IMG/VR virus record: IMGVR_UViG_2740892487_000004
Source of the DNA: a virus
Lineage: Duplodnaviria; Heunggongvirae; Uroviricota; Caudoviricetes
Length of the DNA: 4,345 bases
Strand: one strand, 5' to 3'
This document shows, piece after piece, positions 1 to 4,345 of this stretch (the stretch's first letter is position 1; each line of letters starts with the position of its first letter). Made by a program: the position numbers and the translations under genes. The notes under the pieces were generated by a model. That model had not been told where the DNA came from, ran no database searches, and worked only from the letters and a program-made list of their open reading frames with translations.

Positions 1-635
1 GCGCTGATTTTCTTACGCCGCAGTTCATCGTGACAGAGCCGGGTGTCGTAAGCGCCGTCTGCCGATGCTGCCCTGATTTTTCTGTGAGTCTGCCGGATAA
101 GACCCGGGAAGCTTCTGAGTCCGTCACATTGTTCAGCGACAGGTCTGCACAGATGATTTCATGTGTGTTGCTGTCAACTGCCAGATGCAACTTTCGCCAT
201 ATACGACGGCGTTCTTTGCCGTGTTTTTTGGACTTTCCATTCGCCTTCACCAAAGACCTTCAGCCCGGTGGAATCAATCACCAGATGCGCGATTTCACCC
301 CGGGTGGGCGTTTTGAAACTGACATTAACCGACTTTGCCCGCCTGCTGACACAGCTGTAATCCGGGCAGCGTAGCGGAACGTTCATCAGGGCAAAAATGG
401 AATCAATAAAACCCTGCGCAGCCCGCAGGGTCAGCCGGAATACGCGTTTAATCACCAGAACGGTGGTGATGGCGAGATCAGAATAGCGCTGGGGCCTTCC
501 TCGTGAAGAAGGTGTTGCTGACTCATACCAGGCCTGAATAGCTTCATCATCCAGTCAGAAAGTTATGGAGCCACGGTTGATGAGGGCTTTATTGTAGGTG
601 GGCCAGTTGGTGATTTTGAACTTTTGCTTTGCCAC
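1..635 (-). pseudogene. IS903-type transposase, disrupted (one in-frame stop and two frame changes); C-terminal part lies beyond window start
   Basis: Start candidate GTG 635..633. An in-frame TGA at 557..555 falls at the position of a Trp in the recalled IS903 protein, within the otherwise matching motif F-[W]-LDDEAIQAWYE. The frame then stays open to a TGA at 176..174. The conserved transposase sequence continues only after a +1 shift near 222-232 and a -1 shift near 103-115. Confidence 0.75.
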
Positions 636-712
636 GGAACGGTCTGCGTTGTCGGGAAGATGCGTGATCTGATCCTTCAACTCAGCAAAAGTTCGATTTA
701 TTCAACAAAGCC
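500..712. repeat. Left arm of a 213-bp inverted repeat (IS903-like end), partner at 4135-4345
   Basis: The reverse complement of 4135-4345 aligns with 500-712 with 2 substitutions and 2 single-base indels (about 98% identity by hand alignment). The right arm stops at the window end, so the true repeat is probably longer. Confidence 0.9.
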
Positions 713-1143
713 CCGTTGCGCTTAAAGTTCCGCAGTTAGTTCCCATAGCCACAAATGAGGAGATAATTCCGCGCTTACCTTTTGGCGCATATTCCGCCAG
801 CATCGTACCGGCACCGGAAATTTCCGCACCTGCACCCAATCCCTGAATAATACGCAGCGTCACCAGCAAGATGGGGGCAAAAACACCAATCTGTGCATAG
901 GTCGGTAACACACCAATTAAGGTGGTACAGATCCCCATCATGGTGATGGTAATAAAGAGCACTTTTTTACGCCCTATTCTGTCGCCCATTTTGCCGAAAA
1001 TAAATGCTCCGACAATACGCGCCACATGACCTGCACCGTAGGTTCCCATTGCCAGAATTAACGCCATTGCCGTTGATGATTCAGGAAAAAAATATTTCAT
1101 GAAACACTAACGCTGCGCCGAGCGAATATAACTGGAAATCCAT
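713..1143 (-). pseudogene. ydfJ: MFS transporter (metabolite:H+ symporter family) N-terminal remnant, ydfJ-like; frameshifted and truncated by the IS
   Basis: Track ORF 702..1100 (-) reads MKYFFPESSTAMALILAMGTYGAGHVARIVGAFIFGKMGDRIGRKKVLFITITMMGICTTLIGVLPTYAQIGVFAPILLVTLRIIQGLGAGAEISGAGTMLAEYAPKGKRG..., typical of the N-terminal helices of MHS transporters such as ProP, KgtP and ShiA. Its last residues and stop (704..702) lie inside IS sequence. Upstream in another frame, 1143..1084 encodes MDFQLYSLGAALVFHEIFF, which fits the conserved DF-x-x-Y...FFP motif. The two frames join if the 7-base homopolymer at 1086-1092 were 6 bases. A TGA at 1149..1147 precedes it, so about 40 N-terminal codons are missing. 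The gene symbol comes from recalled synteny with ydfK-pinQ-tfaQ-stfQ. Confidence 0.7.
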
Positions 1144-1748
1144 AATTCACAGGTGTTTTTTTTCCATCCTGTGGTTTCCTTGGCGTTTTCTAGGTTTTTT
1201 CAGATAGTTGCATTTTTTAAAAAGCATCCTAAGTTCGATCTCAGTGTCTATCTGGGGCCTATTTCTGTCCCATATATGCCCAAAAAAAAACTCCCCAACA
1301 GATAAGTAGTTTTTTCATGGATTTATGCGTAAAATCAAGAACGGCTGGAAATCATTCAATACTCACACTATCGAAAAATTTACCAGCCAACCGCAGCACG
1401 TTCTTGCATAAGGCGTGTCTGCGGTTTTTCAACTATTCAGATACATCACTCCCATCACATTCATTCCTCCGCATCAAAGGCATATAGGCTATATCACCTT
1501 GATATTTTTATTTTTCAGATAAAAACTGTTATCTATGTATACTTTTAAACCCAATCCGTGTAGAGTCTCTGCATAAGATAGTTTGCAGTTGCCGCTTCAG
1601 CTTGCGCCATAAACCGCCTGATTTTTGCTGCCACCTGTTAGCATTCCTGTATACCTGAAACGACAATGTTTATCTACGAACTTTAAGAACACCCAAGATA
1701 AAAATTGTCAACTATATCATATATAACACATTACTAATTCGAGGCTAT

Positions 1749-1862
1749 ATGAACAGCATACTGATAATCACATCTCTCCTTATCATATTCAGCATTTTTA
1801 GTCATGCCCTAATAAAATTAGGGATTGGCATATCCAATAACCCAGACAAAACCGATGTATAA
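1749..1862 (+). CDS. Candidate small hydrophobic protein (37 aa, probable single transmembrane helix)
   Basis: ATG at 1749 is preceded by GAGG (1741-1744) with a 4-nt spacer. The product [37 protein letters not shown] has a hydrophobic core and a polar tail. It is below the size cutoff of the supplied ORF track. No homology could be checked. Confidence 0.3.
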
Positions 1863-1930
1863 GTCAACATATCCTGAATCAGACATACAATATCGCAATG
1901 AAAATCAATAATATTTTAAGGAATATCTTC

Positions 1931-2164
1931 ATGAAATCAAAAGACACCCTAAAGTGGTTCCCTGCGCAGCTTCCTGAAGTAAGAATTATCCTAGGGGATG
2001 CTGTAGTGGAAGTAGCAAAACAGGGAAGACCTATCAATACCAGAACATTGCTTGATTACATTGAAGGAAACATAAAGAAAAAATCATGGCTGGATAACAA
2101 AGAATTATTACAAACAGCGATATCAGTTCTTAAAGACAACCAAAATTTAAATGGTAAAATGTAA
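1931..2164 (+). CDS. ydfK: YdfK/YnaE-family small prophage protein (77 aa; family recalled as cold-shock inducible)
   Basis: Track ORF 1898..2164. The ATG at 1931 has AAGGA at 1918-1922 with an 8-nt spacer, whereas the ATG at 1898 has no Shine-Dalgarno sequence, so I favour the 77-aa form MKSKDTLKWFPAQLPEVRIILGDAVVEVAKQGRPINTRTLLDYIEGNIKKKSWLDNKELLQTAISVLKDNQNLNGKM. Its position between a ydfJ-like gene and a pin-tfa-stf module matches the recalled Qin arrangement; ynaE is the Rac paralogue. Confidence 0.7.
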   Translation: MKSKDTLKWFPAQLPEVRIILGDAVVEVAKQGRPINTRTLLDYIEGNIKKKSWLDNKELLQTAISVLKDNQNLNGKM

Positions 2165-2329
2165 TATAATAAACTTACTTTTTTATCATTTTTCCACTTT
2201 AACAACATTTTGCTCCACTTTTCCACGACCAAACAACTTGAAATCTGGTTAAAATAACACGCAACACTATTCTTCTTCCTTGAGTCCGCCCGGAACTCGA
2301 AAAACAAACCGAGTTAAAGCCATTTTTCA

Positions 2330-2343
2330 CAAAATCGATTTTG
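2330..2343. promoter_or_regulatory. Perfect 14-bp palindrome CAAAATCGATTTTG inside a roughly 26-bp imperfect dyad, about 140 bp upstream of the recombinase gene; candidate protein-binding site
   Basis: Direct reading of 2323-2350: TTTTTCACAAAATCGATTTTGGGTCTCA. Function is inferred only from position and symmetry. Confidence 0.25.
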
Positions 2344-2480
2344 GGTCTCACCAAAATTACGGGGTTGCATACGCATTCGTTTATTTTCGAACGTGTACAT
2401 AAAAATATGCACAAAAATAATCAAAATTATTTTCTGAGATGCATTATGATATGAACACCAATTTCGTATAGAGTCTCACT

Positions 2481-3071
2481 ATGTCTCGAATTTTTGCTTA
2501 CTGTCGGATATCAACGCTGGATCAGACCACCGAAAATCAACGCCGGGAAATCGAAAGTGCAGGTTTTAAAATCAAACCTCAGCAAATAATCGAAGAACAC
2601 ATTAGCGGCTCAGCAGCAACCAGTGAGCGTCCTGGTTTTAACCGGTTGCTTGCTCGCCTGAAATGTGGTGATCAATTGATTGTGACAAAACTGGATCGCC
2701 TTGGTTGTAATGCAATGGATATCAGGAAAACAGTGGAACAACTGACCGAAACAGGTATCAGAGTGCATTGCTTAGCATTGGGGGGCATTGACCTGACCAG
2801 TCCAACAGGAAAAATGATGATGCAAGTAATTTCAGCAGTCGCTGAATTTGAACGAGACCTTTTACTTGAACGCACTCATTCCGGGATAGTAAGAGCCCGG
2901 GGCGCAGGGAAACGTTTTGGTCGACCACCTGTGTTAAATGAAGAACAGAAACAGGTGGTATTCGAACGAATTAAGTCAGGTGTAAGTATAAGTGCCATTG
3001 CCCGGGAATTCAAAACCTCGCGGCAAACCATTTTAAGAGCCAAAGCAAAACTTCAGACACCTGACATATAA
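2481..3071 (+). CDS. pinQ: Serine recombinase of the resolvase/invertase family, PinQ/PinR-like (196 aa)
   Basis: Full ORF. The N-terminus [20 protein letters not shown] carries the catalytic-serine motif R-I-S-T-x-D-Q. GRPP at residues 147-150 and a C-terminal helix-turn-helix ([18 protein letters not shown]) are typical of the Gin/Hin/resolvase family. Length and context match E. coli PinQ/PinR as recalled. The Shine-Dalgarno sequence is weak (GAG 2471-2473). Confidence 0.9.
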
Positions 3072-3168
3072 AAAATAATCTCGGTGTGAGATGCTTTACG
3101 TCTTCCAAGCCACCTTCCTTGCCGTAAATGGAAAGATACATCTAATTATAGAATTTATATGTTTTACC

Positions 3169-3744
3169 CTACGGCAGTGCTGGCCATTCAATATCCTGTG
3201 CAGTTGACGTATCAACACGGTTCAGCAATACCCGATACTTTTTCCATGCTTCCAGCAACGAGATTTCTTCCTCCGTTGCAATTTCCAGATCTGCAGCATC
3301 CTGAAGCGGCGCAATATGCTCACTGGCTACCTGCATCAGGCTGTTTTTTGTTTCTTCCGCCTCCCGGATCCGGAACAGTTTTTCTGCTTCCGTATCCTTC
3401 ACCCAGGCTGTGCCGTTCCACTTCTGATATTCCCCTCCCGGCGATAACCAGGTAACATTTTCCGGTAACGGACCGAGTTCAGAAATAAATAACGCGTCGC
3501 CGGAAGCCACGTCATAAACCGTTTTACCCCGATGATCTTCAACGAGATGCCACGATGCCTCATCACTGTTGAAAACAGCCACGAAGCCTGCCGGAATATC
3601 TGGCGGTGCAATATCGATACTGTTTGCTGGCAGACCTGTATGAGGCGGAATATATGCGTCACCTTCACCAATAAATTCATTAGTTCCGGCCAGCAGATTA
3701 TAAATTTTTATGGTCCGTGGTTGTTCACTCATTCTGAATGCCAT
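3169..3744 (-). CDS. tfaQ: Phage tail fibre assembly protein (Tfa chaperone, 191 aa)
   Basis: Full [52 protein letters not shown]..., recognised as the TfaQ/TfaR/TfaE family. Its ATG (3744..3742) overlaps the stop of the upstream tail fibre ORF (TAATG), consistent with translational coupling. Confidence 0.9.
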
Positions 3745-4133
3745 TATGCAAGCCTCACAATATAGTTAAATGCGATGTTTTTGACGGTGTTTTCCGCGTT
3801 ACCAGCAGCGTTAACGGTGATGGTATGTCCATGTGAACCAATCGCAACGGAGTGCGTATGAGCACCAATACCGACAGTATGTGCGTGTGCACCTGCGCTT
3901 GCAGCAGTACCCGATACAGAGTGCGTATGAGCGCCTGCAGAAGAAGTGTTAACACTGTATTTAGAATAATCAGGTGATCCACTTCCCGGAGCACCACTGG
4001 AACCACCTGAAACAAATGTCATCGAATGGGTATGTGCACCGGCTGAAGCAGCCGTACCGCTAACACTATGGGTATGCGCACCAGTGTTATTCGTGGATTT
4101 AGTGCCGTAATCAAACGACGATGTGGTTTTCGT
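3744..4133 (-). pseudogene. stfQ: Side tail fibre protein, C-terminal 129-codon remnant; 5' part removed at the IS junction
   Basis: Track ORF 3744..4223 (-). Residues 31-159 ([37 protein letters not shown]...[11 protein letters not shown]) are typical of the lambdoid side tail fibre C-terminus with His-x-His repeats. Residues 1-30 ([30 protein letters not shown]) are encoded by 4223..4134, which is IS903-like terminus sequence, so there is no native start. Confidence 0.8.
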
Positions 4134-4134
4134 C

Positions 4135-4345
4135 GGCTTTGTTGAATAAATCGAACTTTTGCTGAGTTGAAGGATCAGATCACGTATCTTCCCGACAACG
4201 CAGACCGTTCCGTGGCAAAGCAAAAGTTCAAAATCACCAACTGGCCCACCTACAATAAAGCCCTCATCAACCGTGCTCCATAACTTTCTGGCTGGATGAT
4301 GAAGCTATTCAGCCTGGTATGAGTCAGCAACACCTTCTTCACGAG
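4135..4345 (+). mobile_element. IS903-like insertion sequence, partial copy B, inverted relative to copy A; runs off window end
   Basis: 4135-4153 is GGCTTTGTTGAATAAATCG. GTG at 4212 opens [21 protein letters not shown], then the frame breaks at TAA 4279-4281: copy B lacks one base relative to copy A in GGAGC-CACGG and another in CAGG-CCTGG. Confidence 0.85.

Follow-up and report, generated by a model that had tools for sequence, protein, structure and literature searches.

The window analysed here (the whole stretch of 4,345 nucleotides) contains a piece of prophage DNA with the gene order ydfJ'-ynfT-ydfK-pinQ-tfaQ-stf', which is enclosed by two partial insertion sequences (IS) of the IS903 group (Table 1). 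The gene calls made for the enclosed DNA in the original prediction agree with the RefSeq annotation of near-identical loci and with Pfam, and the gene listed there as a small ORF is ynfT. The ydfJ' fragment is truncated by the prophage on one side and by the left IS on the other, and carries an extra A at 1086 relative to its relatives. Phages mEp460_ev081, HannyBb and Tritos match the enclosed DNA (713-4134) from its base 423, which corresponds to window position 1135. A region inside tfaQ (3203-3401) is assigned to Rfam family IS009.

Table 1. Features of the 4,345-nt window (strand given where applicable)
Feature	Position	Strand	Basis or remark
Left IS903-group element, inner 712 of 1057 bp	1..712	-	Cut by window start; transposase leftward, i.e. 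outward
18-bp terminal inverted repeat of left IS, transposase-start end	695..712	-	GGCTTTGTTGAATAAATC on minus strand, exact match
CCGTTGCGC, inner copy of the 9-bp target duplication of left IS	713..721		Comparison with strain 81
ydfJ', internal fragment, MFS transporter pseudogene	713..1142	-	RefSeq, L001 6708-7142; Pfam MFS_1, Sugar_tr
Qin-type lambdoid prophage remnant, left end	1135..4134		Phage homology begins at 1135
ynfT, YnaM/YnfT small protein, 37 aa	1749..1862	+	Pfam YnaM, E 6.5e-28; RefSeq
ydfK, annotated cold-shock protein YdfK, 77 aa	1931..2164	+	RefSeq WP_000836768.1, matching position in L001 and L002
pinQ, serine DNA invertase homologue, 196 aa	2481..3071	+	Pfam Resolvase, E 2.5e-36, and HTH_7; RefSeq pinQ
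tfaQ, tail fibre assembly protein, 191 aa	3169..3744	-	Pfam Caudo_TAP, E 9.8e-43; RefSeq tfaQ
stf', C-terminal 130 codons of side tail fibre gene	3744..4134	-	Pfam Phage_fiber repeat; truncated by right IS
GTTTTCGTC, expected inner copy of a 9-bp duplication if right IS is a simple insertion	4126..4134		Predicted
Right IS903-group element, first 211 nt, 18-bp terminus at 4135-4152	4135..4345	+	Aligned to complete IS903B copies; cut by window end

The assignment of both IS copies to IS903, which the original prediction had proposed, is supported by the 18-bp termini, the transposase domains, the near-identity to the complete element and the RefSeq name at the matching locus ('IS5-like element IS903B family'). 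The terminus GGCTTTGTTGAATAAATC is found exactly, ending at 712 and starting at 4135; the complete copies at loci L001, L003, L004, L015 and L016 carry it at either end. As in simple insertions of IS903/IS903B, and as is typical of the IS903 group in the IS5 family, the element has a length of about 1057 bp in complete relatives, a single DDE transposase and 9-bp target duplications (here for the left IS), where length, transposase and the presence of both ends are read from complete copies in relatives, the window copies being partial and frameshifted. The IS at the same site in Escherichia coli strain 81 (L001, 5657-6712) is 1056 bp long, while other complete copies have 1057 bp, and its 322-aa product contains the Pfam domains DDE_Tnp_1_5 (E 4.4e-40) and DDE_Tnp_1 (E 6.2e-33).

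The two copies are inverted relative to each other, and the identity of about 98% suggested for 500-712 and 4135-4345 is reproduced by global alignment (209 of 213 columns, 98.1%). A repeat search divides them into three segments, 572-712/4135-4275 (141 nt, 99%), 534-571/4275-4312 and 500-533/4312-4345, which are a single repeat broken by two 1-nt gaps. The inner end of the left arm at 712 is correct, while its proposed start at 500 is not the edge of the element: the left copy covers 1-712, but only 211 nt of the right copy lie within the window, so that the repeat can be followed no further than 500. Both transposases read outward, as had been predicted, with an annotated start at window position 680 (minus strand) on the left and, by symmetry, at 4167 (plus strand) on the right, from where the gene of the right IS runs rightward.

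The left copy has three differences in 712 nt from the same-site copy in strain 81. It carries a stop codon at 555 (TGG to TGA) and two 1-nt indels (positions 111 and 230) that are both missing from the 11 closest copies listed from other genomes (all 99.6%), while the right copy has two 1-nt deletions within its 211 nt (alignment columns 141 and 179). The frameshifts in both copies and the stop in the left one are among the differences from ordinary IS903/IS903B insertions, and they may be sequencing errors: the IS indels and all four differences of the interior from its relatives are located at homopolymer boundaries, and taken together these lesions look like assembly noise. For this reason the view that both IS copies are dead relics is set aside as unproven. 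The left copy belongs to a less frequent sequence variant: its central part has about 90% identity to canonical IS903B and is matched at 99% or more by no more than 16 records of the complete-genome set. At position 51 of the element the right copy shares a T with canonical IS903B, where the left copy and two copies of strain 81 have C; this gives a weak hint that the two window copies may differ, or may reflect sequencing noise.

The enclosed DNA (713-4134) aligns with IS-free E. coli chromosomes in a single collinear piece located between ydfI and prophage tail genes, with an identity of 99.6-99.9%; against the IS-free strain 1008S19, only four differences are found in the interior of the window. 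On this alignment, the 3.4-kb interior is identified as the native ydfJ/Qin junction, located where it normally lies in the chromosome. It resembles the defective lambdoid prophages Qin (and Rac) of E. coli K-12 in the order ydfJ'-ynfT-ydfK-pinQ-tfaQ-stf'(-nohA') and in the integration in ydfJ, and differs from them in the two added IS903-group insertions and in the further shortening of stf' to 130 codons. The 92-aa stf' ORF, for which the gene-position index has entries, is the common K-12-type Qin gene and occurs in native contexts only.

In strain 81 the left IS occupies the identical position, to the base, and has CCGTTGCGC on both sides, a perfect 9-bp duplication, while the empty site in 1008S19 contains CCGTTGCGC once, and ydfJ resumes directly beyond the left IS in strain 81. 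The outer flank of the left IS is taken from this strain, as the window begins inside the element. Over window positions 1-4134, strain 81 differs at seven sites only, but the second IS is missing at 4134/4135 and stf' leads on into nohA'; in both strain 81 and 1008S19 the stf gene extends past 4134 with CCCAAATCCGTACTGG. Since strain 81 possesses the left IS and lacks the right one, the left IS is, as judged from these alignments, a simple insertion able to exist alone. The arrangement found here, a matching 9-bp duplication with ydfJ continuing on the far side, is the one that the original prediction had named as speaking against a composite unit. Among complete E. coli genomes the left junction is found in strain 81 only, in its own ydfJ, and no hits are obtained for it in JGI metagenomes or GTDB representatives.

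These data bear directly on the composite-transposon-like unit put forward in the original prediction. Tn903 consists of two inverted IS903 copies flanking aphA1 and is a mobile unit with cargo foreign to its insertion site. The window shares with it the geometry, namely inverted IS903-type copies (1-712 and 4135-4345) with intact inner termini bracketing a few kilobases of unrelated DNA, here 3.4 kb, and it is this layout alone that points to a true composite transposon, in which an IS903 pair would have captured a prophage fragment and transposed here as a 5.5-kb unit. The difference from Tn903 is that the enclosed DNA is native, that one IS has a duplication of its own, and that a close relative carries that IS only. 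A composite element would have a duplication only at the outer ends of the whole unit, where the left IS already has its own in strain 81, and foreign cargo found at more than one location, where the cargo joins its native neighbours without a break (ydfJ spans the left IS in strain 81) and collinear with IS-free chromosomes at 99.9%, and the only junction found elsewhere is the left one in ydfJ of strain 81. The ydfJ'-to-stf' unit bracketed by IS903 is absent from the other chromosomal sites, plasmids and other genomes among the matches listed, and the interior as a moved unit on plasmids or in phages is represented among these matches by prophage or phage homology only. Composite transposons flanked by IS903B are reported in the literature for resistance genes, which speaks for the idea in general terms. 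Nevertheless, such an origin is extremely improbable for the present pair, and the claim does not hold beyond the geometry: there is no sign that the unit formed by capture or ever moved. Of the two readings offered in the original prediction, the composite element is therefore not upheld, while the second, independent insertions or IS-mediated deletions in a resident prophage, is favoured by the data from outside the window.

The right junction is not represented elsewhere in the same way as the left. A search of 5,426 complete E. coli genomes gives no full match to the stf'-IS junction, the 26 loci compared all lack it, and exact-pattern scans yield nothing in GTDB species representatives or JGI metagenomes. 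The sole place covering the whole junction query is in strain FLI21, where the IS lies 27 bp further along in another prophage. The gene-position index contains no record of the stf'-IS fusion (159 aa), the ydfJ' fragment (132 aa) or the frameshifted transposase piece (93 aa), while the 41-aa transposase start is on record there only as genes ending at contig ends. If the assembly had wrongly fused the stf' region with an IS903 repeat, the resulting chimera might present a junction with no counterpart in the databases searched, and the noise of the window, with its four interior differences and IS indels at homopolymer boundaries and two deletions in the 211 nt of the right arm, would fit such an artefact. 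It is nonetheless very unlikely, as the join coincides exactly with the start of the IS terminus (4135), which is expected of transposition and hardly of a random misjoin, and as this locus and homologous tail-fibre genes commonly contain IS903B insertions.

Independent insertions of IS903B at this locus are found in ydfI, between ydfK and pinQ, and at other positions of ydfJ. Of six complete IS903B copies that were compared, four lie in or next to this locus and two at other places; a 9-bp duplication is present in four of the six. The other two (L004 and L016) have no target duplication, mark deletions and abut unrelated DNA: the IS of L004 lies between a terminase region and an integrase fragment, while L016 reads stf'-IS-nifJ side, its IS being only 27 bp further along a homologous tail-fibre gene. 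These two copies give reason to consider that the right IS marks a rearrangement, either a loss of prophage DNA beyond stf', through an IS-mediated adjacent deletion or by recombination with a further IS903 copy, or an inversion of the 3.4 kb, which might be RecA-dependent or result from intramolecular replicative transposition of the left IS (duplicative inversion). Inverted IS pairs are established substrates for inversion, and an inversion would keep both inner junctions exactly as they are seen. However, most of the copies examined are simple insertions, nothing within the window speaks positively for a rearrangement, and duplicative inversion predicts identical copies, where the left copy has C and the right copy T at position 51 (a weak point given the noise). 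A rearrangement is regarded as a rather unlikely alternative. The right IS is most likely a simple insertion, a reading that is extended to its outer flank beyond the end of the window.

The explanation considered probable is that the junction between ydfJ and a defective Qin-type prophage, in its normal place, has been hit twice independently by IS903-group elements. The first IS entered the ydfJ pseudogene by ordinary cut-and-paste transposition, duplicating the 9-bp CCGTTGCGC, both copies of which are seen in strain 81. The second IS would have entered later and in opposite orientation into the already truncated stf' pseudogene 3.4 kb away, most probably by another simple insertion duplicating GTTTTCGTC. 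As both targets are dead genes, the insertions are probably neutral. In principle, the inverted pair could move as one, invert the 3.4 kb by homologous recombination or cause deletions, and no such event is observed. Two independent simple insertions would be expected to show CCCAGATTG followed by CCGTTGCGC before the left IS and GTTTTCGTC followed by CCCAAATCCGTACTGG after the right IS, with predicted flanks of AGAACATAAAGGCCCAGATTGCCGTTGCGC/GGCTTTGTTGAATAAATCAG on the left and CTGATTTATTCAACAAAGCC/GTTTTCGTCCCCAAATCCGTACTGGATACGCTGG on the right; with neither deletion nor inversion, the outer border of the left IS would be CCCAGATTGCCGTTGCGC/IS and that of the right one IS/GTTTTCGTCCCCAAATCCGTACTGG. 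An inversion would instead give CCAGCGTATCCAGTACGGATTTGGGGACGAAAAC/IS on the left with the remaining part of ydfJ inverted on the right, while a deletion would give unrelated DNA after the right IS, without GTTTTCGTC.

The pair may also be viewed as a newly formed functional composite carrying a serine invertase together with a tail-fibre assembly and tip cassette. If this were true, pinQ-tfaQ-stf' might be moved between prophages or onto plasmids, or the segment might be flipped as an IS-driven switch of the prophage end. It would require that the transposase lesions are sequencing errors and that the outer IS ends are intact, and is held to be highly improbable.

The pinQ region was also considered as an invertible switch of the Hin/Gin/Cin/Pin type, in which inverted 26-bp crossover sites flank alternative tail-fibre ends beside the invertase gene. 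This is rejected, as the window contains no core sites and one tfa/stf set only. In a coarse comparison with the site consensus, the hix/gix-type core AAACCNNGGTTT has no match with at most one mismatch in the window, and one chance-level match in L002, which is within ydfJ.

The locus therefore represents an ordinary, already known kind of feature, in which IS903-group elements accumulate in dead genes of a decaying prophage, and it calls for caution, as a composite transposon can be mimicked by two inverted IS copies lying close together. The left insertion, which strain 81 shares, marks a lineage, while the right one is so far unique, and both together may be of use in strain typing.

The window contains a single long inverted repeat, which the repeat finder splits into three abutting pieces, and a global alignment of its arms matches 209 of 213 columns (98.1%, with two substitutions and two single-base gaps), a value that probably understates the true identity if the assembly is error-prone. 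GGCTTTGTTGAATAAATC is the terminus of both arms, at 712 and 4135. The arm coordinates, identity and termini of the original prediction were thus right by the repeat finder, the alignment and the terminus match, except at the left start: the left copy does end at 712, but the element extends from there to base 1, and the repeat seems to begin at 500 because the window stops 211 nt into the right copy. Complete elements in other E. coli genomes are 1057 bp long with perfect 18-bp terminal inverted repeats, and aligned with them the left element has 712 of its 1057 bp inside the window. The RefSeq name of the element is "IS5-like element IS903B family transposase", and E. coli strain 81 has a copy at the site of the left element, whose transposase contains the Pfam domains DDE_Tnp_1_5 and DDE_Tnp_1. 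Both window elements belong to the IS903 group of the IS5 family, a known type with known behaviour, whose insertion into pseudogenes of the decaying Qin prophage is also already known. Their transposase genes read outward, and the transposase-start ends are therefore toward the interior. As compared with canonical IS903B, the left copy is nearly identical in its first 213 nt and last third, while identity falls to about 90% in its centre, which no more than 16 records in the complete-genome set match at 99% or above; it is accordingly classed, by sequence, as a less common IS903B variant. At IS position 51 the right copy shares T with canonical IS903B, while the left copy shares C with two strain-81 copies, a weak hint that the two window copies differ in sequence.

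Where the window departs from its closest relatives, it does so nearly always by a single-base indel or swap at the edge of a homopolymer. This holds for all four differences between the interior and IS-free relatives; the indels of the IS copies are at short G or C runs, and of the copies listed in other genomes, none of the 11 closest has either left-IS indel. An error-prone, unpolished long-read assembly is the most likely source of the window, in which case both transposases may be inactivated in appearance only, their frameshifts and stop being possible artefacts.

Features of the window and their coordinates
Feature	Coordinates	Strand	Basis or detail
Inverted-repeat piece 1	572-712/4135-4275		repeat finder
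Inverted-repeat piece 2	534-571/4275-4312		repeat finder
Inverted-repeat piece 3	500-533/4312-4345		repeat finder
ydfJ' (MFS transporter pseudogene, without N-terminus)	up to about 1142		annotation and Pfam
ynfT	1749-1862		annotation and Pfam
ydfK	1931-2164		annotation and Pfam
pinQ	2481-3071		Resolvase and HTH_7
tfaQ	3169-3744	minus	Caudo_TAP
stf' (side tail fibre gene, last 130 codons)	3744-4134	minus	annotation and Pfam
Interior differences	1086; 1156-1163; 1282		A7/A8; T/C run; C/A run
Transposase stop	555
Transposase frameshifts	111; 230; two in 4135-4345

Strain 81 (NZ_CP088131.1) shows only 7 differences from window 1-4134, a count that supports only limited inference, since many genes of its locus (L001 1-5654) bear a frameshift in the annotation (dcp, ydfG, rspR, ydfI and ydfJ) and this reference assembly is therefore noisy too. 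The IS variant of the left copy is found there at the identical base, with CCGTTGCGC on each side and ydfJ resuming directly past the element, while the IS-free strain 1008S19 has a single CCGTTGCGC at this position. The left copy can thus be regarded as a simple insertion, and, at least for this copy, the result is the one that the original prediction had set out as refuting a composite unit. Among 5,426 complete E. coli genomes, the left junction is present in strain 81 only.

The interior (713-4134) aligns with E. coli chromosomes as a single block at 99.6-99.9%, in every case between ydfI and Qin-type prophage tail genes; its gene content was taken from the RefSeq annotation of the matching records and from Pfam, which agree. 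Homology with the free lambdoid phages mEp460_ev081, HannyBb and Tritos starts at 1135 and runs rightward, which places the host/prophage boundary at about that position. Chromosomal collinearity and this boundary together show that the enclosed DNA is the usual left junction of the Qin prophage and lies at its native site. The boundary and the annotated end of ydfJ (about 1142) fit integration within ydfJ by such phages.

The layout is like that of Tn903, an inverted IS903-type pair, but the resemblance is geometric only. A composite transposon was rejected by the tests separating it from two neighbouring insertions, as the left IS is flanked by a target duplication of its own, the enclosed "cargo" is at its native site, and a close relative holds just one of the two IS copies. 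Among the matches listed, no IS-bracketed unit occurs at a second chromosomal site or on plasmids. In principle, DNA lying between any two IS copies could be mobilised by them, and joint mobility of this pair is a potential and not an observed property. It is highly improbable that the pair forms a recent, functional composite element or drives a flip of the pinQ-tfaQ cassette. The whole ydfJ'-to-stf stretch is also found at 99.0% in NZ_CP141086.1, a 42-kb record of the plasmid collection with no IS annotated under the match, which seems to be part of a prophage or chromosome classified as a plasmid, and not a mobilised copy.

In strain 81, position 4134/4135 is free of any IS: stf' runs on there (CCCAAATCCGTACTGG...) over a further 258 nt, with nohA' next. 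A left-IS-only state thus exists, which indicates that the elements were acquired separately, the right IS in an event of its own. The stf'/IS junction was not found in the 5,426 complete E. coli genomes, GTDB species representatives, JGI metagenomes or the gene-position index (queried with window-specific ORFs), and is absent from all loci compared. Six complete IS903B-type copies provide a rough prior for the right IS: four at or beside the locus (in ydfJ, in ydfI, between ydfK and pinQ, and at the prophage far end beside an integrase fragment), one elsewhere in strain 81, and one in a homologous tail-fibre gene of strain FLI21. Perfect 9-bp duplications flank four of the six, and the right IS is probably a simple insertion too. 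That it marks a deletion or inversion is rather unlikely given these duplications, although the remaining two copies (beside the integrase fragment, and between stf' and the nifJ side) lack a duplication and mark deletions, and an inversion would keep both inner junctions as they are; it would proceed through homologous recombination between the copies or duplicative intramolecular transposition. The ydfI-ydfJ-Qin end has received repeated IS903B or ISKpn26-type insertions at positions varying by strain (MSB1_9D, L003; NT1F34, L004; FLI21, L016; and other chromosomes), some with 9-bp duplications and some marking deletions.

The pinQ gene is intact. The hix/gix-type crossover core AAACCNNGGTTT (at most one mismatch, a coarse test) occurs neither in the window nor, in an IS-free relative (L002), near the complete tail-fibre gene, and there is just one tfa/stf set. 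An invertible tail-fibre switch was therefore rejected, and PinQ seems to be an invertase without a local substrate. A 21-nt direct repeat (family D3, 81% identity) lies at 1549-1569 and 2457-2477, the second copy adjoining the pinQ start codon, and could reflect coincidence or a shared leader/promoter element; in strain MSB1_9D, an IS903B with the duplication CAATTTCGT is inside this second copy (L003 8961-10017).

Within tfaQ, 3203-3401 on the minus strand is a full-length match to Rfam IS009 (RF02111; 221 bits vs a gathering score of 117), which overlaps the coding sequence on the same strand and is, despite its name, an RNA gene family per Rfam and not an insertion sequence. Four roughly 20-nt direct repeats in stf' (family D1, 3847-4082) give the C-terminus of the tail fibre a recurring G-A-H-T-H-S motif (His-x-His); Pfam places a Phage_fiber repeat there.
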